Shown: positions 1 through 35,791 of the stretch, piece after piece | How positions within the stretch are numbered: the first letter of the stretch is position 1 | Layout: each line of letters starts with the position of its first letter | From: Escherichia coli | Lineage (GTDB): Bacteria > Pseudomonadota > Gammaproteobacteria > Enterobacterales > Enterobacteriaceae | Length of the DNA: 40,549 nucleotides | Strand: one strand, 5' to 3' | Assembly: GCF_003334765.1 (NCBI RefSeq) | Contig: NZ_QOWT01000035.1 | The notes under the pieces: model-generated | What the model saw: the letters and a program-made list of their open reading frames with translations, nothing else | Databases searched by the model: none | Told to the model about the DNA's origin: nothing | Program-made: the position numbers and the translations under genes

Positions 1-102
1 GCTGAACTGTTGCTGGAAGACTACAAAGCCTCCCTGAAATATCTCAGCGATCACCCGAAACTGCAGGGTATTGCCCAACAGAACAGCTTTAAACATACCT
101 GA
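1..102 (+). CDS. gadB: glutamate decarboxylase beta, 3' end only (N-terminus lies upstream of window)
   Basis: Frame 1 translation of 1..99 reads [33 protein letters not shown] followed by TGA at 100-102, matching the GadB C-terminus as I recall it; gadC follows immediately. Confidence 0.85.
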
Positions 103-257
103 TAACGTTTAACGGTAACGGTGTCCCGAAACGAACCCGTTTCGGGACAATTTCCAAAGTCTGTTCACTGGCATTAGCAACGGAAAGTATTGTTCTGAAT
201 ACGCTTCAGAACAAAACAGGTGCGGTTCCGACAGGAATACCGTTTTAGGGGGATAAT

Positions 258-1793: not shown

Positions 1794-1818
1794 CCATGTC
1801 TGAATGGTTATAAGACAA

Positions 1819-1846
1819 GGGAGCGATAATTCATCGCTCCCTTTTT
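1819..1846 (+). terminator. rho-independent terminator downstream of gadC
   Basis: Perfect 9-bp inverted repeat GGGAGCGAT / ATCGCTCCC with 5-nt loop followed by TTTTT, 26 bp after the gadC stop. Confidence 0.75.
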
Positions 1847-1923
1847 CGTGCTTGCTGTCGTATTGACTTAACGGGGATAAGTACGAGAATGAGCGCACAT
1901 CTGTTTACCGGAAACCAGCACAT

Positions 1924-3243
1924 ATGGATATCTGCTCCCGAAACAAGAAATTAACGATTAGAAGACCAGCGATACTAGTTGCACTGGCACTTTTACTGTG
2001 TAGTTGTAAAAGCACGCCTCCAGAGTCCATGGTGACACCACCAGCAGGTTCAAAGCCACCAGCCACGACGCAACAATCGTCACAACCGATGCGTGGCATC
2101 TGGCTGGCCACGGTTTCTCGGCTCGACTGGCCACCGGTTTCCTCGGTTAACATTAGTAACCCCACCAGCCGGGCCCGTGTACAACAACAGGCGATGATCG
2201 ACAAACTGGATCATCTGCAACGTCTCGGCATAAACACGGTCTTTTTCCAGGTCAAGCCGGACGGTACCGCCCTGTGGCCATCGAAAATTTTGCCGTGGTC
2301 CGATCTTATGACCGGTAAGATTGGTGAAAATCCGGGTTACGATCCGCTGCAATTTATGCTCGACGAAGCCCACAAGCGTGGGATGAAAGTACACGCCTGG
2401 TTTAACCCCTATCGCGTATCGGTTAATACGAAGCCCAGTACTATCAGGGAACTGAATAGCACTCTGTCTCAACAACCGGCGAGCGTCTATGTGCAACACC
2501 GCGACTGGATCAGAACGTCTGGCGATCGCTTTGTCCTCGACCCGGGCATCCCTGAGGTTCAGGACTGGATCACATCAATAGTCGCAGAAGTGGTTTCCCG
2601 CTATCCCGTAGATGGCGTGCAGTTTGACGACTATTTCTATACGGAGTCACCGGGTTCACGGCTAAATGATAACGAAACGTACCGTAAATACGGAGGCGCA
2701 TTTGCGTCAAAAGCAGACTGGCGGCGCAACAATACTCAGCAGTTAATTGCAAAGGTATCGCACACCATTAAAAGCATTAAGCCGGGAGTCGAATTTGGTG
2801 TTAGCCCGGCAGGCGTGTGGCGTAACCGATCACACGATCCGCTCGGTTCCGATACCCGAGGCGCGGCAGCCTATGACGAATCCTACGCTGACACCCGTCG
2901 ATGGGTGGAACAAGGATTGCTGGATTACATTGCTCCCCAAATTTACTGGCCGTTCTCACGGAGTGCCGCGCGTTATGACGTGTTGGCAAAATGGTGGGCG
3001 GATGTCGTTAAACCGACCAGGACCCGCCTGTATATCGGTATCGCCTTCTATAAAGTGGGTGAACCTTCAAAGATAGAGCCAGACTGGATGATTAACGGCG
3101 GCGTACCGGAACTGAAAAAGCAGCTCGATCTTAACGATGCTGTGCCCGAAATTAGCGGCACCATCTTGTTCCGTGAGGACTATCTGAATAAACCGCAGAC
3201 TCAACAAGCGGTCAGCTATCTGCAAAGTCGCTGGGGCAGTTAA
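1924..3243 (+). CDS. yddW: glycoside-hydrolase-like lipoprotein YddW (DigH), 439 aa
   Basis: 439-aa ORF with an N-terminal signal sequence ending in a Cys-containing lipobox-like motif (LALLLCSC); recognised as YddW; position between gadC and dosC as in K-12. Confidence 0.88.
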   Translation: MDICSRNKKLTIRRPAILVALALLLCSCKSTPPESMVTPPAGSKPPATTQQSSQPMRGIWLATVSRLDWPPVSSVNISNPTSRARVQQQAMIDKLDHLQRLGINTVFFQVKPDGTALWPSKILPWSDLMTGKIGENPGYDPLQFMLDEAHKRGMKVHAWFNPYRVSVNTKPSTIRELNSTLSQQPASVYVQHRDWIRTSGDRFVLDPGIPEVQDWITSIVAEVVSRYPVDGVQFDDYFYTESPGSRLNDNETYRKYGGAFASKADWRRNNTQQLIAKVSHTIKSIKPGVEFGVSPAGVWRNRSHDPLGSDTRGAAAYDESYADTRRWVEQGLLDYIAPQIYWPFSRSAARYDVLAKWWADVVKPTRTRLYIGIAFYKVGEPSKIEPDWMINGGVPELKKQLDLNDAVPEISGTILFREDYLNKPQTQQAVSYLQSRWGS

Positions 3244-3606
3244 ACTCCCATTCTTACTTTGTAACAAGCCGGTGCTTTACCCACCGGCTTGTTACCCTCT
3301 TAAACTATCCCACTAATAATCATGCTTACTTAAGTCAAATTAACCACACTTAGTTAAACAGCCATAAATCCCTAATAAAAATGTATGAATATGAAAAACC
3401 ATACGATATTCGCTGTCACCGAAAAATAATTACGATGGGCTATACTCTTCTGAAGAACAGTAGCGTAGATTGAAACTGTCCTAAATCGCTTATTTCTTTT
3501 CAGTATATCTTCATATTTCAGGAGAATATGGTGCAGTTAGTCGATCTCGCACGTTGCGTTTCATTTTGATTCCGTCTGATTTCCCAGCCTTATAAGGGTG
3601 TGAATT

Positions 3607-4989
3607 ATGGAGATGTATTTTAAAAGAATGAAAGATGAGTGGACCGGACTTGTCGAACAGGCAGATCCGCCCATTCGTGCTAAAGCCGCGGAAATTGCCG
3701 TTGCGCATGCTCATTATCTGAGTATCGAGTTTTATCGAATTGTCCGCATCGACCCGCATGCCGAAGAATTCTTGAGTAATGAACAAGTTGAGCGGCAGTT
3801 GAAGAGTGCGATGGAACGCTGGATTATTAACGTGCTTTCTGCCCAGGTTGACGATGTCGAAAGGCTAATACAAATCCAGCATACCGTCGCGGAAGTGCAT
3901 GCCCGCATAGGAATTCCGGTAGAAATTGTCGAGATGGGGTTTCGGGTGCTGAAAAAAATCCTCTATCCGGTGATCTTCTCTTCGGATTATTCCGCCGCAG
4001 AAAAACTTCAGGTCTACCATTTCTCGATTAACAGTATTGATATCGCGATGGAAGTGATGACTCGCGCGTTTACCTTTAGTGACAGTAGTGCCTCAAAGGA
4101 AGATGAAAACTATCGTATCTTCTCGTTACTGGAAAACGCCGAAGAAGAAAAAGAACGGCAAATAGCCTCAATACTTTCATGGGAAATAGATATTATCTAT
4201 AAAATCCTGCTGGATTCTGATTTAGGCAGTAGTTTGCCTTTAAGCCAGGCTGATTTTGGCCTGTGGTTTAACCATAAAGGTCGACATTATTTTAGTGGTA
4301 TTGCCGAAGTAGGCCATATCTCCCGTCTGATTCAGGATTTCGACGGTATTTTCAATCAAACCATGCGTAACACCAGAAATTTGAATAACAGAAGTCTGCG
4401 GGTGAAATTTTTATTACAGATAAGAAATACCGTATCGCAAATTATTACCTTGCTGCGTGAATTGTTTGAAGAAGTATCGCGCCACGAAGTCGGTATGGAT
4501 GTACTGACGAAATTACTTAACCGCCGTTTCCTACCGACTATCTTCAAACGCGAAATTGCCCATGCCAACCGGACCGGTACACCGCTGTCAGTGCTGATTA
4601 TTGACGTTGATAAATTCAAAGAGATCAACGATACGTGGGGCCATAACACTGGTGATGAAATTCTGCGTAAAGTCTCTCAGGCCTTTTATGACAACGTCCG
4701 CAGTAGTGATTATGTTTTCCGCTACGGGGGCGATGAATTTATCATTGTTTTGACTGAAGCTTCTGAAAACGAAACGTTACGTACCGCAGAACGTATTCGC
4801 AGTCGGGTGGAGAAAACCAAACTGAAAGCCGCAAACGGCGAAGATATTGCCCTCTCACTTTCCATCGGTGCCGCCATGTTTAATGGTCATCCTGACTATG
4901 AGCGCCTCATTCAAATAGCCGATGAAGCTCTGTATATCGCCAAAAGACGAGGTAGAAACCGTGTTGAACTCTGGAAAGCCAGTCTTTAG
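3607..4989 (+). CDS. dosC: globin-coupled diguanylate cyclase (O2 sensor), 460 aa
   Basis: 460-aa ORF; C-terminal GGDEF domain with RYGGDEF motif visible in translation; recognised as DosC (YddV). Confidence 0.93.
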   Translation: MEMYFKRMKDEWTGLVEQADPPIRAKAAEIAVAHAHYLSIEFYRIVRIDPHAEEFLSNEQVERQLKSAMERWIINVLSAQVDDVERLIQIQHTVAEVHARIGIPVEIVEMGFRVLKKILYPVIFSSDYSAAEKLQVYHFSINSIDIAMEVMTRAFTFSDSSASKEDENYRIFSLLENAEEEKERQIASILSWEIDIIYKILLDSDLGSSLPLSQADFGLWFNHKGRHYFSGIAEVGHISRLIQDFDGIFNQTMRNTRNLNNRSLRVKFLLQIRNTVSQIITLLRELFEEVSRHEVGMDVLTKLLNRRFLPTIFKREIAHANRTGTPLSVLIIDVDKFKEINDTWGHNTGDEILRKVSQAFYDNVRSSDYVFRYGGDEFIIVLTEASENETLRTAERIRSRVEKTKLKAANGEDIALSLSIGAAMFNGHPDYERLIQIADEALYIAKRRGRNRVELWKASL

Positions 4990-5013
4990 ATGCGCCAGGA
5001 TGCAGAGGTAATC

Positions 5014-7413
5014 ATGAAGCTAACCGATGCGGATAATGCCGCCGATGGCATTTTTTTCCCCGCCCTTGAGCAAAATATGATGGGTGCGGTGTTAATTAAC
5101 GAAAATGATGAAGTGATGTTTTTCAACCCCGCCGCAGAGAAGCTCTGGGGATACAAACGTGAAGAAGTCATTGGCAATAACATTGATATGCTGATTCCGC
5201 GGGATTTGCGTCCTGCGCATCCTGAATACATTCGTCACAACCGTGAAGGCGGTAAAGCGCGTGTTGAGGGGATGAGTCGGGAGCTGCAGCTGGAGAAAAA
5301 AGACGGCAGTAAAATCTGGACCCGTTTTGCGCTATCGAAAGTGAGCGCCGAGGGGAAAGTTTATTACCTGGCGCTGGTACGGGATGCCAGCGTAGAAATG
5401 GCGCAAAAAGAACAGACCCGACAATTGATTATTGCCGTTGACCATCTCGACCGACCGGTGATTGTCCTCGATCCGGAACGCCATATTGTGCAGTGCAATC
5501 GCGCATTTACCGAAATGTTTGGTTACTGCATTAGCGAAGCCAGCGGTATGCAGCCCGATACACTCCTGAACATTCCTGAATTCCCTGCCGATAACCGCAT
5601 TCGTTTACAACAGTTGCTATGGAAAACCGCCCGCGATCAGGACGAATTTCTGCTGTTGACGCGCACCGGTGAAAAAATCTGGATTAAAGCCTCTATCAGC
5701 CCGGTTTATGACGTGCTCGCGCATCTGCAGAACCTGGTAATGACTTTCTCGGATATCACCGAAGAACGGCAGATTCGCCAGCTTGAAGGCAATATTCTCG
5801 CCGCCATGTGCAGCAGCCCGCCATTTCATGAAATGGGGGAAATCATTTGTCGTAACATCGAATCTGTACTCAACGAATCGCATGTTTCGCTGTTCGCACT
5901 GCGCAACGGGATGCCGATACACTGGGCGTCATCTTCCCACGGTGCAGAAATTCAAAATGCGCAAAGCTGGTCAGCGACCATTCGTCAGCGTGATGGCGCG
6001 CCTGCGGGGATCCTGCAAATTAAAACCTCGTCAGGAGCAGAAACCAGCGCCTTTATCGAACGCGTGGCAGATATCAGCCAGCATATGGCCGCGCTGGCGC
6101 TGGAACAGGAAAAAAGCCGTCAGCATATTGAACAACTCATCCAATTTGATCCGATGACCGGTCTGCCAAATCGCAATAACCTGCACAATTACCTCGATGA
6201 CCTGGTCGACAAAGCCGTCTCTCCCGTGGTGTATCTCATCGGTGTTGACCATATTCAGGATGTGATTGATAGCCTTGGCTATGCGTGGGCCGATCAGGCA
6301 TTGCTGGAAGTGGTCAATCGCTTTCGTGAAAAACTCAAACCGGATCAGTATCTCTGTCGTATCGAAGGTACGCAGTTTGTCCTCGTGAGCCTCGAAAACG
6401 ACGTCAGTAACATTACCCAAATCGCCGATGAGCTACGGAATGTGGTCAGCAAGCCGATAATGATTGACGATAAACCCTTCCCGCTTACCTTGAGTATTGG
6501 CATCAGCTACGACCTGGGTAAAAACCGCGATTACTTGCTCTCCACTGCTCACAATGCAATGGATTATATTCGCAAGAATGGCGGTAACGGCTGGCAGTTC
6601 TTCAGCCCGGCGATGAACGAAATGGTAAAAGAGCGTTTGGTTTTAGGCGCAGCGCTGAAAGAAGCGATTAGCAATAACCAACTGAAACTGGTTTACCAGC
6701 CGCAAATCTTCGCAGAAACGGGTGAACTGTACGGCATCGAAGCCCTTGCTCGCTGGCACGATCCCCTGCATGGTCATGTGCCCCCTTCACGGTTTATTCC
6801 TCTCGCAGAAGAGATTGGTGAAATCGAAAATATTGGGCGCTGGGTCATCGCGGAAGCTTGCCGTCAGTTAGCAGAATGGCGTAGCCAGAATATTCATATC
6901 CCGGCGTTATCCGTGAACTTGTCGGCGCTGCACTTTCGCAGTAATCAACTGCCTAATCAGGTGTCTGATGCAATGCACGCCTGGGGTATTGACGGCCACC
7001 AGCTGACGGTAGAAATCACGGAAAGCATGATGATGGAACACGATACCGAAATCTTTAAGCGCATTCAGATCCTGCGTGATATGGGCGTGGGCTTATCGGT
7101 AGATGATTTTGGTACGGGCTTTTCCGGATTATCCCGCTTAGTCAGTCTTCCGGTAACGGAAATCAAAATTGACAAAAGTTTTGTCGATCGTTGTCTGACC
7201 GAAAAACGCATCCTTGCCTTACTTGAAGCCATTACCAGCATTGGGCAAAGCCTCAATTTAACCGTCGTGGCGGAAGGCGTCGAAACCAAAGAGCAATTTG
7301 AGATGCTACGCAAGATCCACTGTCGCGTTATTCAGGGATATTTCTTTTCCCGCCCCCTACCCGCCGAAGAAATTCCAGGCTGGATGAGCAGCGTGTTACC
7401 GCTGAAAATCTGA
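5014..7413 (+). CDS. dosP: heme-PAS c-di-GMP phosphodiesterase (O2 sensor), 799 aa
   Basis: ORF track gives 4990..7413 (807 aa); the start is placed at the internal ATG (MKLTDADNAADGIFF...) to give the 799-aa length I recall for DosP. EAL motif (YGIEALARW) and a degenerate GGDEF region are visible. Start 25 nt after the dosC stop. Confidence 0.9.
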   Translation: MKLTDADNAADGIFFPALEQNMMGAVLINENDEVMFFNPAAEKLWGYKREEVIGNNIDMLIPRDLRPAHPEYIRHNREGGKARVEGMSRELQLEKKDGSKIWTRFALSKVSAEGKVYYLALVRDASVEMAQKEQTRQLIIAVDHLDRPVIVLDPERHIVQCNRAFTEMFGYCISEASGMQPDTLLNIPEFPADNRIRLQQLLWKTARDQDEFLLLTRTGEKIWIKASISPVYDVLAHLQNLVMTFSDITEERQIRQLEGNILAAMCSSPPFHEMGEIICRNIESVLNESHVSLFALRNGMPIHWASSSHGAEIQNAQSWSATIRQRDGAPAGILQIKTSSGAETSAFIERVADISQHMAALALEQEKSRQHIEQLIQFDPMTGLPNRNNLHNYLDDLVDKAVSPVVYLIGVDHIQDVIDSLGYAWADQALLEVVNRFREKLKPDQYLCRIEGTQFVLVSLENDVSNITQIADELRNVVSKPIMIDDKPFPLTLSIGISYDLGKNRDYLLSTAHNAMDYIRKNGGNGWQFFSPAMNEMVKERLVLGAALKEAISNNQLKLVYQPQIFAETGELYGIEALARWHDPLHGHVPPSRFIPLAEEIGEIENIGRWVIAEACRQLAEWRSQNIHIPALSVNLSALHFRSNQLPNQVSDAMHAWGIDGHQLTVEITESMMMEHDTEIFKRIQILRDMGVGLSVDDFGTGFSGLSRLVSLPVTEIKIDKSFVDRCLTEKRILALLEAITSIGQSLNLTVVAEGVETKEQFEMLRKIHCRVIQGYFFSRPLPAEEIPGWMSSVLPLKI

Positions 7414-7425
7414 CAAATTCCTCTC

Positions 7426-7449
7426 GCCCGCACTCGCGGGTTTTCATTT
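7426..7449 (+). terminator. rho-independent terminator downstream of dosP
   Basis: Inverted repeat CCCGC / GCGGG with short loop immediately followed by TTTTCATTT, starting 13 bp after the dosP stop. Confidence 0.65.
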
Positions 7450-7610
7450 AACGTGACACTGTCACTTAAATACTGTGATTTCAGCTACGATTCCGGGAGA
7501 TTCCTTCCTTAACTTCCCCTCTTGCACCAAAACTGCACTACGCTGCACAAATGTTGATCAAAAGTTAAAAAATATAACTTTAAGCCAGCATTCTGGCGCT
7601 TATCCCGGCA

Positions 7611-7626
7611 TGGCATGAGATCTGCA
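7611..7626 (+). promoter_or_regulatory. candidate sigma54 (-24/-12) promoter for ddpX operon
   Basis: TGGCATGAGATCTGCA matches the sigma54 consensus TGGCACG-N4-TTGCA with correct GG..GC spacing, about 45 bp upstream of the ddpX ATG; TGCAC repeats lie 65-90 bp further upstream. Confidence 0.55.
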
Positions 7627-7670
7627 TAAGCGGAAAGCGCAGCAATTTTTGTCTTATACAGGAACCGTTT

Positions 7671-8252
7671 ATGTCGGATACCACCGAACTGGTTGATTTA
7701 GCCGTAATCTTCCCTGATCTGGAGATCGAATTGAAATACGCCTGCGCTGATAACATCACAGGTAAAGCTATTTATCAGCAAGCGCGTTGTCTGTTACACA
7801 AGGATGCGATTACCGCGCTGGCGAAAAGTATCAGCATCGCCCAGCTGTCAGGGTTACAACTGGTGATTTACGATGCGTATCGCCCACAACAAGCACAGGC
7901 GATGTTGTGGCAAGCCTGCCCAGACCCGCAATATGTTGTTGATGTGACGGTCGGTTCTAATCACAGCCGTGGCACGGCGATCGACCTGACGCTTCGTGAT
8001 GAGCACGGGAACATCCTCGATATGGGCGCAGGGTTCGATGAAATGCACGAGCGCTCCCATGCCTATCACCCTTCCGTCCCGCCCGCCGCTCAGCGCAATC
8101 GGCTGTTGCTGAATGCGATAATGACTGGTGGCGGTTTTGTCGGTATCTCCAGCGAATGGTGGCACTTCGAATTACCCCAGGCAGCGAGTTACCCTCTGCT
8201 CGCTGATCAATTCTCTTGTTTTATATCCCCTGGCACACAGCACGTCAGTTAA
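7671..8252 (+). CDS. ddpX: D-Ala-D-Ala dipeptidase (VanX homologue), 193 aa
   Basis: 193-aa ORF recognised as DdpX; first gene of a six-gene cluster with an ABC dipeptide transporter downstream. Confidence 0.92.
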   Translation: MSDTTELVDLAVIFPDLEIELKYACADNITGKAIYQQARCLLHKDAITALAKSISIAQLSGLQLVIYDAYRPQQAQAMLWQACPDPQYVVDVTVGSNHSRGTAIDLTLRDEHGNILDMGAGFDEMHERSHAYHPSVPPAAQRNRLLLNAIMTGGGFVGISSEWWHFELPQAASYPLLADQFSCFISPGTQHVS

Positions 8253-8265
8253 TCAGGAAACTGTC

Positions 8266-9816
8266 ATGAAGAGATCGATATCGTTTCGTCCCACATTGCT
8301 CGCGCTCGTCCTTGCCACAAATTTCCCGGTTGCGCACGCCGCCGTACCAAAAGATATGCTGGTGATTGGTAAGGCCGCCGATCCACAAACCCTCGACCCG
8401 GCGGTAACAATAGATAATAACGACTGGACAGTGACCTACCCGTCTTATCAGCGGCTGGTTCAGTACAAAACGGACGGTGATAAAGGCTCAACCGACGTTG
8501 AAGGCGATCTGGCAAGTAGCTGGAAAGCGTCTGACGATCAAAAAGAGTGGACGTTCACCCTGAAAGATAATGCTAAATTTGCCGATGGCACACCTGTCAC
8601 TGCCGAAGCAGTAAAACTTTCTTTTGAGCGGCTACTAAAAATCGGCCAGGGGCCAGCAGAAGCATTTCCCAAAGATTTAAAGATTGATGCTCCCGACGAA
8701 CATACGGTGAAGTTTACCCTTAGCCAACCATTCGCACCGTTCCTCTACACGCTGGCGAATGACGGTGCATCCATTATCAATCCGGCGGTCTTAAAGGAAC
8801 ATGCAGCGGATGATGCTCGCGGCTTCCTCGCGCAAAATACCGCCGGTTCCGGACCATTTATGCTGAAAAGCTGGCAAAAAGGTCAGCAATTAGTTCTGGT
8901 GCCAAATCCGCATTACCCAGGCAATAAACCGAACTTCAAACGGGTATCGGTAAAAATTATTGGTGAAAGTGCCTCCCGTCGCCTGCAGCTCTCCCGTGGC
9001 GACATTGACATTGCCGATGCGCTGCCGGTGGATCAACTCAACGCCCTGAAGCAGGAAAATAAAGTCAATGTGGCAGAGTATCCGTCACTGCGCGTTACCT
9101 ATCTGTATCTGAATAACAGCAAAGCGCCTCTTAATCAGGCGGATCTGCGTCGGGCCATTTCCTGGTCTACCGATTATCAGGGCATGGTTAACGGCATTCT
9201 GAGTGGTAACGGAAAACAGATGCGCGGCCCGATTCCGGAAGGCATGTGGGGCTACGATGCGACGGCAATGCAATACAACCATGACGAAACGAAAGCCAAA
9301 GCCGAATGGGATAAAGTGACGAGCAAACCCACCAGCCTGACGTTTCTCTACTCCGATAACGATCCGAACTGGGAGCCTATTGCTCTGGCGACACAATCCA
9401 GTCTCAACAAGCTGGGCATCATTGTGAAGCTGGAAAAGCTGGCGAACGCCACCATGCGCGACAGAGTGGGTAAAGGTGATTACGACATTGCGATTGGCAA
9501 CTGGAGTCCGGATTTTGCCGACCCGTATATGTTTATGAATTACTGGTTTGAGTCAGACAAAAAAGGTCTGCCGGGTAACCGCTCGTTCTATGAAAACAGT
9601 GAGGTCGATAAGTTACTGCGCAATGCGCTTGCGACCACCGACCAGACGCAGCGTACCCGGGACTACCAGCAGGCACAGAAAATCGTCATTGATGACGCTG
9701 CTTATGTGTACCTGTTCCAGAAAAACTACCAACTGGCGATGAACAAAGAGGTGAAAGGCTTTGTGTTCAATCCCATGCTGGAACAGGTCTTCAATATCAA
9801 TACCATGAGTAAATAA
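8266..9816 (+). CDS. ddpA: periplasmic substrate-binding protein of D,D-dipeptide ABC transporter, 516 aa
   Basis: ORF track gives 8128..9816 overlapping ddpX; start placed at the internal ATG giving MKRSISFRPTLLALVLATNFPVAHA signal peptide and the recalled 516-aa length. Confidence 0.9.
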   Translation: MKRSISFRPTLLALVLATNFPVAHAAVPKDMLVIGKAADPQTLDPAVTIDNNDWTVTYPSYQRLVQYKTDGDKGSTDVEGDLASSWKASDDQKEWTFTLKDNAKFADGTPVTAEAVKLSFERLLKIGQGPAEAFPKDLKIDAPDEHTVKFTLSQPFAPFLYTLANDGASIINPAVLKEHAADDARGFLAQNTAGSGPFMLKSWQKGQQLVLVPNPHYPGNKPNFKRVSVKIIGESASRRLQLSRGDIDIADALPVDQLNALKQENKVNVAEYPSLRVTYLYLNNSKAPLNQADLRRAISWSTDYQGMVNGILSGNGKQMRGPIPEGMWGYDATAMQYNHDETKAKAEWDKVTSKPTSLTFLYSDNDPNWEPIALATQSSLNKLGIIVKLEKLANATMRDRVGKGDYDIAIGNWSPDFADPYMFMNYWFESDKKGLPGNRSFYENSEVDKLLRNALATTDQTQRTRDYQQAQKIVIDDAAYVYLFQKNYQLAMNKEVKGFVFNPMLEQVFNINTMSK

Positions 9817-9817
9817 C

Positions 9818-10840
9818 GTGACCTTCTGGAGTATTTTACGCCAACGCTGCTGGGGGCTGGTGCTCGTGGTGGCGGGCGTCTGCGTGATTACGTTTATTAT
9901 CTCGCATCTGATCCCTGGTGATCCGGCGCGGTTACTGGCGGGTGACCGCGCCAGCGATGCTATCGTGGAAAATATTCGCCAGCAACTGGGACTGGACCAG
10001 CCACTGTATGTACAGTTTTACCGCTACGTCAGCGACCTGTTTCATGGTGACCTGGGAACATCCATTCGTACCGGGCGTCCGGTGCTGGAAGAGTTGCGTA
10101 TATTTTTCCCGGCGACGCTGGAGCTGGCTTTTGGTGCCCTGCTGCTGGCACTCCTGATTGGCATCCCGCTGGGCATACTCTCTGCAGTCTGGCGAAATCG
10201 CTGGCTGGATCATCTGGTGCGAATAATGGCCATTACCGGAATCTCCACACCTGCGTTCTGGCTTGGGCTGGGCGTCATTGTGCTGTTTTATGGTCATCTG
10301 CAAATTCTTCCCGGCGGCGGAAGGCTTGATGACTGGCTGGATCCACCAACGCACGTTACCGGCTTTTATCTGCTCGATGCGCTGCTTGAAGGCAACGGTG
10401 AAGTCTTCTTCAATGCGTTGCAACATCTCATCTTACCGGCATTAACGCTGGCGTTCGTTCACCTGGGAATTGTCGCTCGCCAGATCCGCTCAGCGATGCT
10501 GGAACAATTGAGTGAAGACTACATTCGTACCGCCCGGGCCAGCGGCTTGCCCGGCTGGTATATCGTTTTATGTTATGCGCTACCCAATGCGTTGATCCCA
10601 TCGATTACCGTATTGGGTTTGGCGCTGGGCGATTTGTTGTATGGCGCAGTGCTCACCGAAACCGTTTTTGCCTGGCCCGGAATGGGTGCATGGGTAGTAA
10701 CATCAATACAGGCGCTCGACTTCCCGGCAGTGATGGGCTTTGCCGTCGTGGTTTCATTTGCTTATGTGCTGGTCAACCTGGTGGTGGATTTGCTCTATTT
10801 GTGGATTGATCCGCGTATCGGACGTGGAGGTGGTGAATGA
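9818..10840 (+). CDS. ddpB: ABC transporter permease, 340 aa
   Basis: GTG start 1 nt after the ddpA stop; multi-TM permease recognised as DdpB (DppB-like). Confidence 0.9.
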   Translation: MTFWSILRQRCWGLVLVVAGVCVITFIISHLIPGDPARLLAGDRASDAIVENIRQQLGLDQPLYVQFYRYVSDLFHGDLGTSIRTGRPVLEELRIFFPATLELAFGALLLALLIGIPLGILSAVWRNRWLDHLVRIMAITGISTPAFWLGLGVIVLFYGHLQILPGGGRLDDWLDPPTHVTGFYLLDALLEGNGEVFFNALQHLILPALTLAFVHLGIVARQIRSAMLEQLSEDYIRTARASGLPGWYIVLCYALPNALIPSITVLGLALGDLLYGAVLTETVFAWPGMGAWVVTSIQALDFPAVMGFAVVVSFAYVLVNLVVDLLYLWIDPRIGRGGGE

Positions 10841-11733
10841 TGCTAAGCGAGGAAACGTCCGCCGTACGCCCACAAAAACAAACGCGATTTAACGGTGCAA
10901 AACTGGTATGGATGCTGAAAGGCAGTCCGCTCACCGTGACCAGCGCAGTCATCATTGTATTAATGCTATTGATGATGATTTTTTCACCGTGGCTGGCGAC
11001 GCATGATCCCAACGCCATTGATTTAACCGCCCGCCTTTTGCCGCCTTCTGCGGCGCACTGGTTTGGCACCGATGAAGTGGGACGCGATCTGTTTAGCCGC
11101 GTACTGGTCGGCAGTCAGCAATCAATTCTCGCCGGATTAGTCGTGGTTGCCATTGCGGGTATGATTGGTTCGCTACTCGGATGTCTATCCGGTGTGCTTG
11201 GTGGACGCGCAGACGCCATCATCATGCGCATCATGGACATTATGCTGTCGATTCCTTCGTTGGTACTGACAATGGCACTGGCTGCCGCTCTCGGGCCGAG
11301 TTTGTTTAACGCCATGCTGGCTATTGCTATTGTGCGAATTCCCTTTTATGTGCGCCTGGCGCGGGGGCAAGCATTAGTTGTACGCCAGTATACCTATGTT
11401 CAGGCGGCGAAAACCTTTGGCGCGTCTCGTTGGCATCTGATCAACTGGCATATTTTACGTAACTCCCTACCGCCGCTGATCGTGCAGGCATCGCTGGATA
11501 TCGGTAGCGCGATTTTAATGGCCGCCACGTTGGGATTTATTGGCCTGGGTGCTCAACAACCGAGTGCTGAATGGGGCGCGATGGTAGCAAATGGTCGCAA
11601 CTATGTACTCGATCAGTGGTGGTATTGCGCATTTCCGGGGGCAGCGATTTTGCTTACCGCCGTCGGGTTTAATCTCTTTGGTGATGGTATTCGCGATCTG
11701 CTTGACCCGAAAGCAGGAGGAAAGCAGTCATGA
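10837..11733 (+). CDS. ddpC: ABC transporter permease, 298 aa
   Basis: ATGA start/stop overlap with ddpB; DppC-like permease. Confidence 0.9.
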   Translation: MMLSEETSAVRPQKQTRFNGAKLVWMLKGSPLTVTSAVIIVLMLLMMIFSPWLATHDPNAIDLTARLLPPSAAHWFGTDEVGRDLFSRVLVGSQQSILAGLVVVAIAGMIGSLLGCLSGVLGGRADAIIMRIMDIMLSIPSLVLTMALAAALGPSLFNAMLAIAIVRIPFYVRLARGQALVVRQYTYVQAAKTFGASRWHLINWHILRNSLPPLIVQASLDIGSAILMAATLGFIGLGAQQPSAEWGAMVANGRNYVLDQWWYCAFPGAAILLTAVGFNLFGDGIRDLLDPKAGGKQS

Positions 11734-12716
11734 CCCAACCCGTTCTGGACATTCAACAACTGCATTTGAGTTTCCCCGGTTTTAACGGTGATGTTCACGC
11801 GCTCAACAATGTGTCCTTGCAGATTAACCGCGGTGAAATTGTCGGTCTGGTGGGAGAATCCGGCTCAGGTAAATCAGTCACCGCAATGCTGATTATGCGT
11901 CTGCTACCGACGGGCAGTTATTGCGTACATCGGGGGCAGATTTCCCTGCTGGGAGAAGATGTTCTTAACGCGCGGGAAAAACAGCTTCGTCAGTGGCGCG
12001 GCGCACGAGTGGCGATGATCTTTCAGGAACCGATGACCGCCCTCAATCCGACACGTCGAATAGGTCTTCAGATGATGGACGTGATCCGCCATCATCAACC
12101 AATAAGTCGTCGGGAAGCCAGAGCTAAAGCGATTGACCTGCTGGAAGAGATGCAAATCCCGGATGCCGTGGAAGTTATGTCGCGCTATCCGTTTGAGCTT
12201 TCAGGTGGTATGCGCCAGCGGGTAATGATTGCGCTGGCATTCTCCTGCGAGCCGCAATTGATTATTGCCGACGAACCGACTACGGCGCTGGACGTCACGG
12301 TGCAGTTGCAGGTACTGCGTTTGCTTAAACATAAAGCCCGCGCCAGTGGAACTGCGGTTCTGTTCATCAGCCATGATATGGCCGTGGTGTCGCAACTGTG
12401 CGATAGCGTTTACGTGATGTATGCCGGAAGCGTAATTGAAAGCGGCGTGACGGCAGACGTTATCCATCATCCCCGGCATCCGTATACCATTGGTTTGCTG
12501 CAATGCGCACCAGAACATGGAGTACCACGCCAGCTATTACCCGCCATTCCAGGGACGGTACCAAACCTCACCCATTTGCCTGACGGCTGCGCTTTTCGCG
12601 ATCGTTGCTATGCGGCAGGTGCACAGTGTGAAAACGTCCCGGCGCTGACAGCGTGTGGTGACAACAACCAGCGCTGTGCCTGTTGGTATCCGCAGCAGGA
12701 GGTTATAAGTGTCTGA
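11730..12716 (+). CDS. ddpD: ABC transporter ATP-binding protein, 328 aa
   Basis: Walker A GESGSGKS and signature LSGGMRQR visible; ATGA overlap with ddpC. Confidence 0.92.
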   Translation: MTQPVLDIQQLHLSFPGFNGDVHALNNVSLQINRGEIVGLVGESGSGKSVTAMLIMRLLPTGSYCVHRGQISLLGEDVLNAREKQLRQWRGARVAMIFQEPMTALNPTRRIGLQMMDVIRHHQPISRREARAKAIDLLEEMQIPDAVEVMSRYPFELSGGMRQRVMIALAFSCEPQLIIADEPTTALDVTVQLQVLRLLKHKARASGTAVLFISHDMAVVSQLCDSVYVMYAGSVIESGVTADVIHHPRHPYTIGLLQCAPEHGVPRQLLPAIPGTVPNLTHLPDGCAFRDRCYAAGAQCENVPALTACGDNNQRCACWYPQQEVISV

Positions 12717-13635
12717 CACGTTATTAACGTTACGCGACGTCCATATCAATTTCCCGGCCCGTAAAAACTGGCTTGGTAAAACTACGGAACATGTTCATGC
12801 CATTAATGGTATTGATTTACAGATCCGCCGTGGTGAAACCTTAGGGATCGTCGGCGAGTCAGGCTGCGGCAAAAGCACCCTCGCACAGCTTTTAATGGGT
12901 ATGCTGCAACCGAGCCACGGGCAGTACATCCGTTCTGGCTCACAACGCATTATGCAGATGGTGTTTCAGGACCCGCTCTCTTCGCTTAATCCGCGCTTAC
13001 CGGTGTGGCGCATCATCACAGAACCGCTCTGGATAGCTAAGCGTAGTAGTGAACAACAGCGGCGAGCGTTGGCAGAGGAGTTGGCTGTGCAGGTGGGTAT
13101 TCGTCCGGAGTATCTCGACCGCCTGCCTCATGCGTTCTCCGGCGGGCAGCGGCAACGTATCGCCATTGCCAGAGCACTCTCTTCGCAGCCTGACGTGATT
13201 GTGCTTGATGAGCCAACCTCTGCGCTGGATATCTCCGTTCAGGCGCAGATCCTCAATTTACTGGTAACGCTACAGGAAAATCACGGGCTGACCTATGTGC
13301 TGATTTCACACAATGTCTCGGTGATACGTCATATGAGCGATCGGGTGGCGGTGATGTATCTCGGGCAGATTGTAGAACTGGGCGACGCGCAGCAGGTGCT
13401 GACGGCACCTGCACATCCATACACCCGATTATTGCTGGATTCCCTCCCCGCCATTGATAAACCGCTGGAGGAAGAATGGGCATTACGTAAAACGGATCTG
13501 CCGGGAAACCGCACGTTGCCGCAAGGCTGTTTTTTCTACGAACGTTGCCCGCTGGCAACCCACGGATGTGAAGTCCGGCAATCATTAGCAATAAGGGAGG
13601 ACGGACGTGAGCTCCGGTGCTGGCGGGCGCTGTAG
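12709..13635 (+). CDS. ddpF: ABC transporter ATP-binding protein, 308 aa
   Basis: GTG start overlapping the ddpD end by 8 nt; Walker A GESGCGKS and signature FSGGQRQR visible. Confidence 0.9.
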   Translation: MSDTLLTLRDVHINFPARKNWLGKTTEHVHAINGIDLQIRRGETLGIVGESGCGKSTLAQLLMGMLQPSHGQYIRSGSQRIMQMVFQDPLSSLNPRLPVWRIITEPLWIAKRSSEQQRRALAEELAVQVGIRPEYLDRLPHAFSGGQRQRIAIARALSSQPDVIVLDEPTSALDISVQAQILNLLVTLQENHGLTYVLISHNVSVIRHMSDRVAVMYLGQIVELGDAQQVLTAPAHPYTRLLLDSLPAIDKPLEEEWALRKTDLPGNRTLPQGCFFYERCPLATHGCEVRQSLAIREDGRELRCWRAL

Positions 13636-13690
13636 AGATGCTAACAACGCATCAGGCATTCACGCGCCTGACGCGTCATCCGGCAATGCT

Positions 13691-14122
13691 TTACGATTTC
13701 AACTGGTAATCCAGCGTAATTTCCGCTTTCAGTACCTGAGAGACCGGGCATCCTGCTTTTGCTTTCTGGATTATGCCGTCAAAGGTAGAGGCATCAATAC
13801 CCGGCACCGCAACTTCACTCTTCAGTGCGATTTTCGTAATCGCAAAACCGGCATCCACTTTATCCAGCGACACATCGGCGGTGGTATCAATCGATGTTGG
13901 CGTGAATCCCGCTTCCCCCAGCATTAATGAAAGCGCCATTGAGAAACATGCGGCATGCGCTGCGCCAATCAGTTCTTCAGGGTTGGTTCCTTTTTCGCCT
14001 TCAAAACGCGTGTTAAATCCATACGGCTGTTGGTTCAGCACGCCACTCTCGGTGGATACTGTTCCCTTCCCGCGTTTGATATCGCCTTCCCAGTGTGCCT
14101 GACCTTTCTTATGGATTGTCAT
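13691..14122 (-). CDS. osmC: osmotically inducible peroxiredoxin OsmC, 143 aa
   Basis: 143-aa ORF recognised as OsmC (OsmC/Ohr family); convergent with ddpF. Confidence 0.95.
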   Translation of the reverse strand: MTIHKKGQAHWEGDIKRGKGTVSTESGVLNQQPYGFNTRFEGEKGTNPEELIGAAHAACFSMALSLMLGEAGFTPTSIDTTADVSLDKVDAGFAITKIALKSEVAVPGIDASTFDGIIQKAKAGCPVSQVLKAEITLDYQLKS

Positions 14123-14466
14123 TGTTGCTCTCCTGTGGGCTTAAAAAGGAAATTATAGACTACGTGAGAAACAGCACGAGGATAAGCAGGATATTCCGAA
14201 TAAAATCCGGCGAAAATATTACTTCTGCACTTAAATTAAATTCCCACAATAGATTACCGGGAATATATAACCCAAAAGATATTGTATCAATATTAATCGG
14301 ATCATACCAATCACAATCCCTATTAATATCATGGTGTTAAAATATAAAAATCATCAACCAGGACTAATCTTAACAACGAAGCGGCAAATATTTGCCATGC
14401 TGAATGTGCTTTATAAATCTGCGATCCGTAGCAGACACCATAAATACACAGACACGGAGAATCACT

Positions 14467-14682
14467 ATGTTTACTTATTATCAGGCAGAAAATTCAACAG
14501 CAGAACCCGCTCTGGTTAATGCCATTGAGCAAGGCCTTCGGGCACAGCATGGTGTTGTCACTGAAGATGACATTCTCATGGAGCTGACCAAATGGGTTGA
14601 AGCTTCTGATAACGACATCCTCAGTGATATCTACCAGCAAACGATCAATTATGTGGTCAGTGGCCAGCACCCTACGCTTTAA
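14467..14682 (+). CDS. bdm: biofilm-dependent modulation protein Bdm, 71 aa
   Basis: ORF track gives a 92-aa ORF from 14404; the recalled 71-aa Bdm begins at the internal ATG (MFTYYQAENSTAEPALVN...), preceded by GGAG. Confidence 0.85.
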   Translation: MFTYYQAENSTAEPALVNAIEQGLRAQHGVVTEDDILMELTKWVEASDNDILSDIYQQTINYVVSGQHPTL

Positions 14683-14783
14683 GGTGCTATGCTTGATCGG
14701 CAACCTAATTTAGGGGTTTAGCACGTGTTTCTTCGCTACGGCGATGTTGTCCTTAAAACTAGCTACAGGATTGAGGAGTTAAA

Positions 14784-14921
14784 ATGAAATCGAACCGTCA
14801 GGCACGTCATATTCTTGGACTGGACCATAAAATTTCTAACCAGCGCAAAATAGTTACCGAAGGTGACAAATCCAGCGTAGTAAATAACCCAACCGGCAGA
14901 AAACGCCCCGCTGAAAAGTAA
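14784..14921 (+). CDS. sra: stationary-phase ribosome-associated protein Sra (S22), 45 aa
   Basis: Not in the ORF track (below 60 aa). ATG at 14784 preceded by GAGGAG; translation [45 protein letters not shown] then TAA; followed by a strong terminator. Confidence 0.9.
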
Positions 14922-14951
14922 TTCATAACCATCAGTCCTCAATGACGATTA

Positions 14952-14987
14952 AACACCATTGCCTGCGCAATGGTGTTTTTGTTTTTA
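14952..14987 (+). terminator. rho-independent terminator downstream of sra
   Basis: 11-bp inverted repeat AACACCATTGC / GCAATGGTGTT followed by TTTTTGTTTTT. Confidence 0.85.
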
Positions 14988-15077
14988 TCTGCTTTATACT
15001 TGAGGCCGACGCCCTGGCGGTAAAGCAAAGACGATAAAAGCCCCCCAGGGATGGATATTCAAAAAAGAGTGAGTGAC

Positions 15078-16775
15078 ATGGAACCAAAAACAAAAAAACA
15101 GCGTTCGCTTTATATCCCTTACGCTGGCCCTGTACTGCTGGAATTTCCGTTGTTGAATAAAGGCAGTGCCTTCAGCATGGAAGAACGCCGTAACTTCAAC
15201 CTGCTGGGGTTACTGCCGGAAGTGGTCGAAACCATCGAAGAACAAGCGGAACGAGCATGGATCCAGTATCAGGGATTCAAAACCGAAATCGACAAACACA
15301 TCTACCTGCGTAACATCCAGGACACTAACGAAACCCTCTTCTACCGTCTGGTAAACAATCATCTTGATGAGATGATGCCTGTTATTTATACCCCAACCGT
15401 CGGCGCAGCCTGTGAGCGTTTTTCTGAGATCTACCGCCGTTCACGCGGCGTGTTTATCTCTTACCAGAACCGGCACAATATGGACGATATTCTGCAAAAC
15501 GTGCCGAACCATAATATTAAAGTGATTGTGGTGACTGACGGTGAACGCATTCTGGGGCTTGGTGACCAGGGCATCGGCGGGATGGGCATTCCGATCGGTA
15601 AACTGTCGCTCTATACCGCCTGTGGCGGCATCAGCCCGGCGTATACCCTTCCGGTGGTGCTGGATGTCGGAACGAACAACCAACAGCTGCTTAACGATCC
15701 GCTGTATATGGGCTGGCGTAATCCGCGTATCACTGACGACGAATACTATGAATTCGTTGATGAATTTATCCAGGCTGTGAAACAACGCTGGCCAGACGTG
15801 CTGTTGCAGTTTGAAGACTTTGCTCAAAAAAATGCGATGCCGTTACTTAACCGCTATCGCAATGAAATTTGTTCTTTTAACGATGACATTCAGGGCACTG
15901 CGGCGGTAACAGTCGGCACACTGATCGCAGCAAGCCGCGCGGCAGGTGGTCAGTTAAGCGAGAAAAAAATCGTCTTCCTTGGCGCAGGTTCAGCGGGATG
16001 CGGCATTGCCGAAATGATCATCTCCCAGACCCAGCGCGAAGGATTAAGCGAGGAAGCGGCGCGGCAGAAAGTCTTTATGGTCGATCGCTTTGGCTTGCTG
16101 ACTGACAAGATGCCGAACCTGCTGCCTTTCCAGACCAAACTGGTGCAGAAGCGCGAAAACCTCAGTGACTGGGATACCGACAGCGATGTGCTGTCACTGC
16201 TGGATGTGGTGCGCAATGTAAAACCAGATATTCTGATTGGCGTCTCAGGACAGACCGGGCTGTTTACGGAAGAGATCATCCGTGAGATGCATAAACACTG
16301 TCCGCGTCCGATCGTGATGCCGCTGTCTAACCCGACGTCACGCGTGGAAGCCACACCGCAGGACATTATCGCCTGGACCGAAGGTAACGCGCTGGTCGCC
16401 ACGGGCAGCCCGTTTAATCCAGTGGTATGGAAAGATAAAATCTACCCTATCGCCCAGTGTAACAACGCCTTTATTTTCCCGGGCATCGGCCTGGGTGTTA
16501 TTGCTTCCGGCGCGTCACGTATCACCGATGAGATGCTGATGTCGGCAAGTGAAACGCTGGCGCAGTATTCACCATTGGTGCTGAACGGCGAAGGTATGGT
16601 ACTGCCGGAACTGAAAGATATTCAGAAAGTCTCCCGCGCAATTGCGTTTGCGGTTGGCAAAATGGCGCAGCAGCAAGGCGTGGCGGTGAAAACCTCTGCC
16701 GAAGCCCTGCAACAGGCCATTGACGATAATTTCTGGCAAGCCGAATACCGCGACTACCGCCGTACCTCCATCTAA
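15078..16775 (+). CDS. maeA: NAD-dependent malic enzyme, 565 aa
   Basis: ORF track gives 15051..16775 (574 aa); start placed at the internal ATG ([10 protein letters not shown]...) to match the recalled 565-aa MaeA/SfcA; the start at 15051 remains possible. Confidence 0.9.
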
Positions 16776-16781
16776 GCCTGC

Positions 16782-16822
16782 GCCCGGTAGTGAAGGCTAC
16801 CGGGCTATTTCCCTCTCCCTTT
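16782..16822 (+). terminator. terminator-like hairpin downstream of maeA
   Basis: Inverted repeat GCCCGGTAG / CTACCGGGC followed by a T/C-rich tract ending in CCCTTTTTC. Confidence 0.6.
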
Positions 16823-16908
16823 TTCAGATCTCATCCATACTGGGTAGTGGCGAATAAATCTCATTTGCCTCACCTGCTATGCAGAACATCATCCGAAAAG
16901 GAGGAACT

Positions 16909-17919
16909 ATGAAGGCTGCAGTTGTTACGAAGGATCATCATGTTGACGTTACGTATAAAACACTGCGCTCACTGAAACATGGCGAAGCCCTGCTGAAAAT
17001 GGAGTGTTGTGGTGTATGTCATACCGATCTTCATGTTAAGAATGGCGATTTTGGTGACAAAACCGGCGTAATTCTGGGCCATGAAGGCATCGGTGTGGTG
17101 GCAGAAGTGGGTCCAGGTGTCACCTCATTAAAACCAGGCGATCGTGCCAGCGTGGCGTGGTTCTACGAAGGATGCGGTCATTGCGAATACTGTAACAGTG
17201 GTAACGAAACGCTCTGCCGTTCAGTTAAAAATGCCGGATACAGCGTTGATGGCGGGATGGCGGAAGAGTGCATCGTGGTCGCCGATTACGCGGTAAAAGT
17301 GCCAGATGGTCTGGACTCGGCGGCGGCCAGCAGCATTACCTGTGCGGGAGTCACCACCTACAAAGCCGTTAAGCTGTCAAAAATTCGTCCAGGGCAGTGG
17401 ATTGCTATCTACGGTCTTGGCGGTCTGGGTAACCTCGCCCTGCAATACGCGAAGAATGTCTTTAACGCCAAAGTGATCGCCATTGATGTCAATGATGAGC
17501 AGTTAAAACTGGCAACCGAAATGGGCGCAGATTTAGCGATTAACTCACACACCGAAGACGCCGCCAAAATTGTGCAGGAGAAAACTGGTGGCGCTCACGC
17601 TGCGGTGGTAACAGCGGTAGCTAAAGCTGCGTTTAACTCGGCAGTTGATGCTGTCCGTGCAGGCGGTCGTGTTGTGGCTGTCGGTCTACCGCCGGAGTCT
17701 ATGAGCCTGGATATCCCACGTCTTGTGCTGGATGGTATTGAAGTGGTCGGTTCGCTGGTCGGCACGCGCCAGGATTTAACTGAAGCCTTCCAGTTTGCCG
17801 CCGAAGGTAAAGTGGTGCCGAAAGTCGCCCTGCGTCCGTTAGCGGACATCAACACCATCTTTACTGAGATGGAAGAAGGCAAAATCCGTGGCCGCATGGT
17901 GATTGATTTCCGTCACTAA
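16909..17919 (+). CDS. adhP: zinc-dependent alcohol dehydrogenase, 336 aa
   Basis: ORF track gives 16879..17919; start placed at the ATG preceded by GGAGGAAC giving [11 protein letters not shown]...; zinc-ligand motifs (GHEGIG, C-x2-C-x2-C) visible. Confidence 0.93.
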
Positions 17920-18064
17920 GAGGCCTTTGCTGCGACTGCCATGTTCGGGTCGCAGCATCGCACACTCTCCAACATGAAATGGCTAAATGGATTATTGTTG
18001 CGTAGGAAGGAACAATAATGATAGTGTTCCCAGTGAAGAAACGCTACTGAGAGTAAAGACACTA

Positions 18065-18349
18065 ATGAAAATGGCCAATCATCCCCGCCCGGGGGACATT
18101 ATTCAGGAATCACTGGACGAACTTAATGTCAGCCTGCGCGAGTTTGCCAGAGCAATGGAAATTGCTCCCTCAACGGCAAGCCGATTGCTGACAGGAAAAG
18201 CAGCTTTGACGCCAGAAATGGCGATTAAACTTTCCGTGGTGATCGGCAGTTCGCCGCAAATGTGGCTGAATCTGCAAAACGCCTGGAGTCTGGCAGAGGC
18301 AGAAAAAACAGTGGATGTGTCGCGATTACGCCGTCTGGTTACGCAATAA
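18065..18349 (+). CDS. yddM: HigA-like XRE-family HTH protein (putative orphan antitoxin), 94 aa
   Basis: ORF track gives a 120-aa ORF from 17987; the recalled YddM starts at the internal ATG ([17 protein letters not shown]...); helix-turn-helix region ([27 protein letters not shown]) visible. Confidence 0.75.
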
Positions 18350-18737
18350 AAAAATGGCACTTTATAAAGCGCCATTTAGAACTGATGACAAACGCAACAT
18401 TGCCTGATGCGCTACGCTTATCAGGCCTACACGTTCACTGCAATCTATTGGATTTGAAGGGTTTTCATGCCGGATAAGGCGTTCACGCCGCATCCGGCAT
18501 GAACAAAGCCTACGTTGTCTACAATATAAAAATGACGCCTTTTACAGCGCCATTTGAAACTGATGACAAACGCAACATTGCCTGATGCGCTACGCTTATC
18601 AGGCCTACACGTTCACTGCAATCTATTGGATTTGAAGGGTTTTCATGCCGGATAAGGCGTTCACGCCGCATCCGGCATGAACAAAGCCTACGTTGTCTAC
18701 AATATGAAAATGGCGCCTTTTACAGCGCCATTTTCAG
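18350..18737. repeat. tandem array (~2.2 copies of a ~178-bp unit) containing REP palindromic units and terminator-like hairpins
   Basis: Directly visible: 18350-18527 and 18528-18705 are near-identical, and a third partial copy of the AAAATGGCGCC...GCGCCATTTT hairpin lies at 18706-18735. Each unit carries two REP-type palindromes (GCCTGATGCGCTACGCTTATCAGGCCTAC and GCCGGATAAGGCGTTCACGCCGCATCCGGCA). Confidence 0.9.
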
Positions 18738-18755
18738 CTTAAAGTTCAAAAGAGA

Positions 18756-19409
18756 TTATATCCCTTCTTCACTCTCTTTTTTCGCTTCTGCCTTCTCGAT
18801 TTCACGATACCAGCGCGGATGGTGTTTCTTCGCCCAGCGACGACTTACCTTCCCTTCGATCATCCCTTTAATCGATCCTTTCACCCAAAATGCCATATAC
18901 ATATGGATCAGGATGGCGTGGATCAGGATGATACCCGCAGCCGCGTGGATCAGCAGGCTGTAGCGAACAACCTGCATCGGGAAGTACTGCGCAAAGTACG
19001 GACGCCAGATAATCACCCCGGTCACCAGCAGCACGAAAATCATGCTCATGATCGACCAGAACATCATCTTTTGCCCGGCGTTGTACTTACCGACATCCGC
19101 CACTTTATGCTCATTGCCTTTCAATACTTCGACAATGTTCAACAGCCACGGAATATCTTTCTTATCCGGGATGTTGTGATGCACAAAACGCACAAACATA
19201 AACATCAGTGCGACGAAAATCGCAATGCCGAAGAACGGGTGCAAAATGCGTCCCATCTGCGGCGTACCGAAGGTTTGCGTCAGCCATTGCAGCGTCGGGA
19301 AGAAGAACGAAATCCCGGACAGCGCCACCAGGAAGAAGCAAATCACCACGGTCCAGTGACAGGCGCGATCAATAAATTTGGTGCGCACAATCATTTTCGA
19401 CTTACTCAT
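18756..19409 (-). CDS. fdnI: formate dehydrogenase-N gamma subunit (cytochrome b), 217 aa
   Basis: ORF track gives 231 aa from 19451; start placed at [12 protein letters not shown]... to give the recalled 217 aa; overlaps the fdnH end by 8 nt. Confidence 0.9.
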
Positions 19410-20286
19410 GATGATCCTCCTCGTCATCGTCCACTTCCTTATTCGGGCCAATACCGATGTAGTGGAAAATCAACCCGGCAAAAGTGGCAATAAAGCCAGC
19501 CGCTGCCAGCGGTTTCAACGCGCCTTTCCACAGGCTTACCGAGGTGTCGATCTTCGGATCTTTCGGCAGACCGTGATACAGCTCCGGCTGATCGGCGTGA
19601 TGCAGCACGTACATAACGTGCGTACCACCGACCCCTTCCGGGTTGTAGACGCCAGCATGTTCGTAACCACGCGCTTTCAGTTTCGCCACGCGCTGTTCCG
19701 CCAGCTCCAGCATCTCCTTCTTGGTGCCGAAGTGGATAGCCCCGGTCGGACAGGTTTTCACACAAGCCGGTTCCTGGCCGACGCTGACGCGATCGACGCA
19801 GAGCGTGCATTTATATACCCGGTTATCCTCTTTGTTGAGGCGCGGAATATTAAACGGACACCCGGCAATGCAGTAACCACAGCCGATGCAGTTTTCCGAC
19901 TGGAAATCGACAATCCCGTTAGCGTACTGAATGATTGCACCAGCAGACGGGCACGCCTTCAGGCAGCCGGGATCTTCACAGTGCATACAGCCGTCTTTAC
20001 GGATCAGCCACTCCAGCTTGCCGTTCTGTTCGGTTTCGCTAAAGCGCATCACCGTCCAGGACTTGGCGCTCAGATCGGCGGGGTTATCGTAAACCCCGAC
20101 GCAGTGCCCCACTTCATCACGGATGTCGTTCCACTCCGAACACGCCACCTGACAGGCTTTACAGCCGATACAGGTGGAAACGTCGATAAGTTTTGCGACT
20201 TCTGCTTTGTAATCACGCACCTGAGAAGGCGGCGTGATGGAGTTAGTTGCGGACCTTTTGATAATGTCCTGCGTTTCCATAGCCAT
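19402..20286 (-). CDS. fdnH: formate dehydrogenase-N beta subunit (4Fe-4S ferredoxin-type), 294 aa
   Basis: Multiple Cys-x2-Cys-x2-Cys-x3-Cys ferredoxin motifs and a C-terminal membrane anchor; recognised as FdnH. Confidence 0.95.
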
Positions 20287-20298
20287 CTGTTCGCCCCC

Positions 20299-33438: not shown

Positions 33439-34133
33439 TGCAGATCCTCAAAGTGATCGGCCTGTTGATGGAGTATCCGGACGAGCTGTTGTGGGAATGC
33501 AAGGAGGACGCGCTGGCGTTGATCCGCCGCGACGCGCCGATGCTTACGGATTTCACCCACAACCTGCTTAACGCGCCGCTGCTGGATAAACAGGCCGAAT
33601 GGTGCGAAGTGTTTGACCGCGGGCGCACCACGTCGCTGCTGCTGTTCGAACATGTTCATGCCGAGTCCCGCGATCGCGGCCAGGCAATGGTGGACCTGCT
33701 GGCGGAGTATGAAAAGGTCGGCCTGCAGCTGGATTGTCGGGAACTGCCCGATTATCTACCGCTGTATCTGGAGTATTTAAGCGTACTGCCTGACGATCAG
33801 GCGAAAGAAGGATTGCTCAATGTTGCGCCGATCCTCGCCCTGCTTGGCGGTCGCTTAAAACAACGCGAGGCACCGTGGTACGCGTTGTTTGATGCTCTGC
33901 TGCAACTGGCGGGAAGCTCCCTTTCAAGTGACAGTGTCACAAAACAAGTAAACAGCGAAGAGCGCGATGACACCCGCCAGGCGCTTGATGCAGTGTGGGA
34001 AGAGGAACAGGTGAAGTTTATTGAAGATAACGCCACGGCGTGTGACAGCTCGCCGCTTAATCAATATCAGCGACGCTTTAGCCAGGATGTCGCGCCGCAA
34101 TATGTCGACATCAGTGCGGGAGGTGGGAAATGA
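33438..34133 (+). CDS. narW: nitrate reductase Z assembly chaperone (NarJ paralogue), 231 aa
   Basis: 231-aa ORF whose ATG overlaps the narY TAA by 1 nt; recognised as NarW. Confidence 0.92.
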
Positions 34134-35782: not shown

Positions 35783-35791
35783 AACCGTTGT

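Follow-up and report, generated by a model that had tools for sequence, protein, structure and literature searches.

The 45-codon sra gene between bdm and maeA of Escherichia coli, hidden from a length-filtered open reading frame list

Organization of the sra locus

The DNA analysed here, hereafter called the window, is a stretch of 40,549 nucleotides from an Escherichia coli genome, of which positions 1..39075 align gap-free to positions 1570746..1531672 (reverse strand) of strain MG1655 with 99.916% identity. The local gene order is ddpF, osmC (- strand), bdm, sra and maeA. The bdm gene, located at 14467..14682 (+), encodes the biofilm-dependent modulation protein of 71 aa, as indicated by NCBIfam NF008515 (170 bits vs. 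a cut-off of 136) and by RefSeq, and a 101-nt spacer separates it from sra. The sra coding sequence, assigned from its translation, profile matches, RefSeq and orthologs, occupies 14784..14921 (+) and consists of an ATG-initiated run of 45 sense codons (ATG included) closed by TAA. A Shine-Dalgarno sequence, GAGGAG, can be read at 14773..14778 (+), 5 nt (TTAAA) ahead of the ATG. The intrinsic terminator of bdm and sra lies at 14951..14986 (+); its 12-bp stem (AAACACCATTGC/GCAATGGTGTTT, 14951..14978) encloses a 4-nt loop and is followed by a T-run, TTGTTTTT, that extends to 14986. The hairpin lies 29 nt from the sra stop codon, and its predicted fold of -19.1 kcal/mol stands against -8.1 +/- 2.3 kcal/mol for dinucleotide shuffles (z = -4.8), with none of 200 shuffles being as good.

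The translation signals of sra were compared with those of other short frames by transferring the K-12 gene table to the window and enumerating frames of 10-59 codons, which gave 141 start-to-stop frames wholly between genes (3976 intergenic bases collinear with K-12). Only five of the 141 combine an ATG with a Shine-Dalgarno core of at least 4 nt placed 4-10 nt upstream, namely sra, yddY, two nested frames antisense to sra and a 10-codon frame before yddM, and the best Shine-Dalgarno among them is that of sra; because of this rarity, the combination of signals at sra is far from that of typical chance ORFs. The first-pass annotation, which had described a clean ATG-initiated 45-codon frame with a strong GAGGAG Shine-Dalgarno and a textbook terminator, is borne out in all three respects by the frame, the rank of its Shine-Dalgarno and the fold of its terminator.

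Identity and conservation of sra

The 45-aa product matches Sra of E. coli K-12 (b1480 / NP_415997.1) at every residue, and comparison of the translation with Sra/RpsV therefore agrees with the identity first proposed for the frame. Pfam PF08136 SRA_like ("Ribosome hibernation factor SRA") matches residues 1-44 over model positions 1-46 of 46 with an i-Evalue of 2.8e-31 and 108 bits, and the NCBIfam equivalog NF007473 scores 74.5 bits vs. a curated cut-off of 35, so that the family match is full-length and above the curated threshold. The product also carries the hallmarks of the family, that is, a length of about 45 aa, a basic character, the N-terminus MKSNRQARH and the motifs SNQ and GRKR; with 6 Lys and 5 Arg vs. 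2 Asp and 2 Glu among its 45 aa, it is strongly basic, with a net charge of about +7. RefSeq labels this stretch sra in genomes that are identical here. When an 801-base query covering bdm and sra was searched against complete E. coli genomes, it was present in 5413 of 5426, always at >=95% identity. Compared with the K-12 gene (b1480), the gene in the window shows no difference: the 45-aa sequence, the neighbours (osmC, bdm and maeA), the Shine-Dalgarno and the terminator are all the same, whereas 33 positions in the 39 kb around it differ from MG1655.

Relatives of Sra are few, with only 66 clusters among 5.8 billion protein clusters, nearly all of which carry PF08136, and the named relatives belong to Escherichia, Shigella, Salmonella, Citrobacter and Intestinirhabdus, all of them genera of Enterobacteriaceae. 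Residues M1-A7, H9, L11, G12, S18-Q20, K22, G38 and R39 are invariant in 16 Sra homologs. Eight orthologous loci were fetched by exact-protein look-up, which together with the window gave nine sequences for comparison. The order osmC-bdm-sra-maeA is kept in Salmonella and Intestinirhabdus, and the order osmC-sra-maeA without bdm is found in two Citrobacter genomes, E. albertii and one metagenomic contig; in the window, sra occupies the chromosomal position expected in Enterobacteriaceae, between osmC/bdm and maeA. Since bdm is absent from some of these loci, sra is older or more stable than its partner bdm, and there it must have a promoter of its own. The loci with bdm missing between osmC and sra are L007, L009 and L010 (about 2273-2500) and L008, and E. 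albertii retains a 3' remnant of bdm.

At the codon level, sra evolves as protein-coding sequence, with purifying selection acting on the frame. No stop interrupts the frame in any of the nine sequences, pairwise dN/dS against the window ranges from 0.09 to 0.54 over the eight orthologous loci, and third positions dominate the variation (22, 17 and 34 variable columns of 43 at codon positions 1, 2 and 3, respectively). The flanking signals are conserved as well. AGGAG of the Shine-Dalgarno is invariant in 9/9 orthologous loci, and the terminator stem is kept in seven orthologs, in three of which one pair has changed from U-A to C-G in a compensatory manner; by eye, the two most divergent loci (L006 and L010) have unrelated GC-rich inverted repeats with a T-run at the same position.

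Two other readings of the frame were weighed against these data. According to the first, the frame would be a chance ORF in the untranslated 3' tail of the bdm transcript, where the RNA and not the peptide matters. That the frame is short, and that the window's intergenic DNA holds 141 frames of 10-59 codons, would speak for such a tail; however, a frame that stays open in nine of nine sequences with dN/dS well below 1 and a third-position bias, behind an invariant Shine-Dalgarno, and whose translation scores far above threshold with the family HMMs, does not behave as one. In addition, sra persists where bdm is absent, Rfam has no RNA family at the locus, and the Sra protein has been seen on ribosomes by mass spectrometry (PMC9959377, PMC13220301). 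Detection at the protein level, together with conservation at the codon level, refutes this reading, to which we assign almost no probability.

The second reading places the true gene on the opposite strand, as a 59-aa ORF at 14763..14942 (-) or a 41-aa ORF at 14807..14932 (-), both overlapping sra. Both ORFs do exist, the 41-aa ORF has a 4-nt Shine-Dalgarno-like core, and in five of the nine orthologs the antisense frame runs through sra without a stop; against this, it is interrupted in the other four, the pattern of variation fits the + frame, and neither ORF has a family match or an annotation. An open antisense frame is, moreover, a common by-product of a codon-biased sense gene. Broken in 4/9 orthologs, the antisense ORFs across sra were rejected, and a gene on that strand is extremely improbable.

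No evidence against the identity of the gene was found. We consider it virtually certain that this frame of 45 codons is chromosomal sra, earlier called rpsV and its product S22 or protein D, in an E. coli strain that shows about 99.9% identity with K-12 here. According to the literature, the gene is transcribed from two promoters; it is translated from GAGGAG, and its transcript ends at an intrinsic terminator before maeA. It is an already known, textbook-annotated gene, real but ordinary.

Transcription and leader of sra

A candidate promoter element for sra, TGCTATGCT, lies at 14685..14693 (+), immediately behind the stop codon of bdm. This conserved block is shared by E. coli, Salmonella and E. 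albertii, and loci L004 and L005 carry it as TGCTAAGCT. Its sequence resembles an extended -10 element in which a C occupies -13, as is typical of sigma-S promoters. A scan for sigma-70 promoters with two hexamers found none on the + strand between bdm and sra. Judged from its sequence and conservation, TGCTATGCT may be the sigma-S-like promoter element of sra itself, which fits published statements that sra is co-transcribed from the bdm promoter and has its own promoter besides (PMC10746276) and that ppGpp and RpoS are predicted to control it (PMC10502375). CsrA was reported to act as an indirect repressor of sra transcription in exponentially growing cells (PMC10746276). According to the literature, transcription of sra combines read-through from the bdm promoter with initiation at a promoter in the 101-nt spacer; it ends at the intrinsic terminator before maeA, and translation starts from the strong GAGGAG Shine-Dalgarno.

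The leader of sra can also be drawn as a possible hairpin at 14750..14777 (+), whose two arms would be UCCUUAA (14750-14756) and UUGAGGA (14771-14777), so that most of the Shine-Dalgarno would be buried in the stem. This hairpin is present in the minimum-free-energy fold, with an energy z-score of 0.04 for the leader relative to shuffled sequence, and the pairing is possible in all nine orthologs (92.6% of cells paired, a value equalled by 294 of 500 column shuffles). Earlier work modelled a structure that includes the sra Shine-Dalgarno and reported that cadaverine stimulates an sra translational fusion (PMC10917681). It is conceivable, albeit rather unlikely, that the conserved UCCUUAA leader serves as a translational gate, opened for example by polyamines, that helps to restrict Sra synthesis to stationary phase; such a gate, if true, would mean that sra, until now described as transcriptionally regulated, is also controlled post-transcriptionally. 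A scan of the whole window at the Rfam gathering thresholds detected no RNA family near sra, the sole match being the SECIS of fdnG.

Sra protein and the ribosome

For the identical protein of K-12 and B strains, the literature describes binding to the small ribosomal subunit in stationary phase and regulation by growth phase (PMC9959377, PMC13220301, PMC10502375, and Izutsu et al., 2001, as cited therein). Expression of the gene is documented as well: ribosome-protected-fragment evidence is listed for sra (PMC10746276), a review tabulates about 15,800 Sra per cell on the basis of ribosome profiling, and the mass-spectrometry (iBAQ) abundances given there are 1835 in exponential and 5851 in stationary phase (PMC10502375). 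An absence of ribosome occupancy, which the first-pass annotation had named as a finding that would count against the gene, is not what published ribosome profiling shows, since sra is translated (PMC10502375, PMC10746276). The protein was found in stationary-phase ribosomes by quantitative mass spectrometry (PMC9959377), and native mass spectrometry showed that "30S + SRA" predominates among the 30S species of E. coli B ribosomes (PMC13220301).

A search of the PDB (177,635 distinct sequences) gave no chain matching Sra at E <= 1. AlphaFold, run on Sra with a 16-sequence alignment, returned a mean pLDDT of 66 and a pTM of 0.30, and the sole helix of the model is N-terminal (residues 4-11, pLDDT about 79). 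As modelled, Sra has no confident independent fold, and this low-confidence model fits a peptide that would fold on its target. Most likely, Sra is a disordered, strongly basic peptide that becomes ordered on 16S rRNA via its conserved N-terminal segment and GRKR motif, and it may act there as an accessory to ribosome hibernation. Reviews call the function of Sra unknown or obscure (PMC10746276, PMC10502375).

Sra can be compared with RMF (ribosome modulation factor, 55 aa, E. coli), which like Sra is small, basic, induced in stationary phase and ribosome-binding. Both proteins vanish together from ribosomes and from the proteome in prolonged stationary phase (PMC9959377). However, the two have no sequence relationship; RMF drives the formation of 100S dimers and has solved structures, whereas Sra has no structure and, unlike RMF, no known effect on the distribution of ribosomes among states (PMC10746276). 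Sra does not have the properties of a core ribosomal protein either, which would be constitutive, stoichiometric and broadly conserved and would have a defined place in structures. A preprint dates the origin of sra within Enterobacteriaceae (10.1101/2025.11.04.686544), and in current publications Sra is regarded as a ribosome-associated or hibernation factor and not as a true ribosomal protein, with RpsV/S22 being a historical name. Because no solved ribosome structure contains Sra and because the protein is confined to Enterobacteriaceae, the core-protein name S22/RpsV does not fit, and Sra is to be filed as a ribosome-associated factor.

Genes hidden from length-filtered ORF lists

With its 45 codons, sra is absent from the ORF track because the list stops at 60 amino acids; at this cut-off, no ORF overlaps 14710..15040, in agreement with the remark in the first-pass annotation that the gene falls below the limit of the list. 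The accompanying suspicion that other genes of less than 60 aa could have been missed in the same way proved justified. The K-12 annotation holds one further such gene in the window besides sra, namely yddY (b4746), which is present as an exact copy of the K-12 gene at 3528..3569 (+), has 13 codons, is preceded by AGGAG at 3520-3524 and ends 37 nt before dosC. The gene also escapes the ORF tool, whose minimum is 20 aa. Tagging has revealed the yddY product (10.1101/511675), and its induction at low Mg2+ was reported to depend on PhoQP (PMC11429745). Thus, yddY and sra are both sub-60-aa genes that sit in intergenic gaps behind a Shine-Dalgarno in the same window, invisible to length-filtered ORF lists. 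In contrast to sra, yddY is only 13 codons long, PhoQP-dependent, induced by low Mg2+, without known function (PMC11429745) and unrelated to ribosomes, and it belongs to the class of E. coli small proteins found by tagging or by start-site ribosome profiling.

The value of these observations is methodological, in that a 60-aa cut-off hides real expressed genes, including at least two annotated ones (sra and yddY) in a 40-kb window. Beyond correct annotation, the window gains nothing.

Two further features of the window concern such lists. The selenoprotein gene fdnG at 20299..23346 (-) has an in-frame TGA at codon 196 (selenocysteine), followed directly by an Rfam SECIS_3 match at 22706..22764 (-) with 84 bits, and stop-to-stop ORF lists split this gene in two at the UGA codon. 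The 10-codon ATG frame before yddM, located at 18018..18050 (+), has an AGGA Shine-Dalgarno core, ends 14 nt before the yddM start and is unannotated; yddM is a HigA-family antitoxin gene, and no toxin partner is annotated adjacent to it here.

Other features of the window

Just 3' of the sra terminator, the sequence TGCTTTATACT at 14990..15000 (+) is conserved in 7/9 loci and looks like a candidate extended -10 element for maeA. The longest ORF of maeA begins with the ATG at 15051, and the RefSeq start is the ATG at 15078.

The gap between yddM and fdnI is filled by a 178-nt unit that is tandemly repeated 2.2 times (95% match) at 18344..18733 and is also present in K-12. Each unit contains a hairpin-like palindrome (the GGCGCC...GGCGCC region) and the REP-like sequence GCCTGATGCGCTACGCTTATCAGGCCTAC.

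At the far end of the window, collinearity with K-12 stops where the ydcC ISEc1/H-repeat element has its outer edge. The DNA beyond this edge, 39076..40549, encodes the C-terminal tip of an Rhs protein (DPLGLS..., 176 aa), a yhhH-like ORF of 127 aa and a truncated HEAT-repeat/"lyase" ORF, and in other E. coli genomes it adjoins yhhI at the rhsB locus. The junction as it stands in the window was found in only one of 5426 complete genomes (Origami2-DE3). Given this rarity and the location of the DNA at the rhsB locus in other genomes, the data suggest that the junction at 39076 arose by recombination between H-repeat copies, or possibly by an assembly join.
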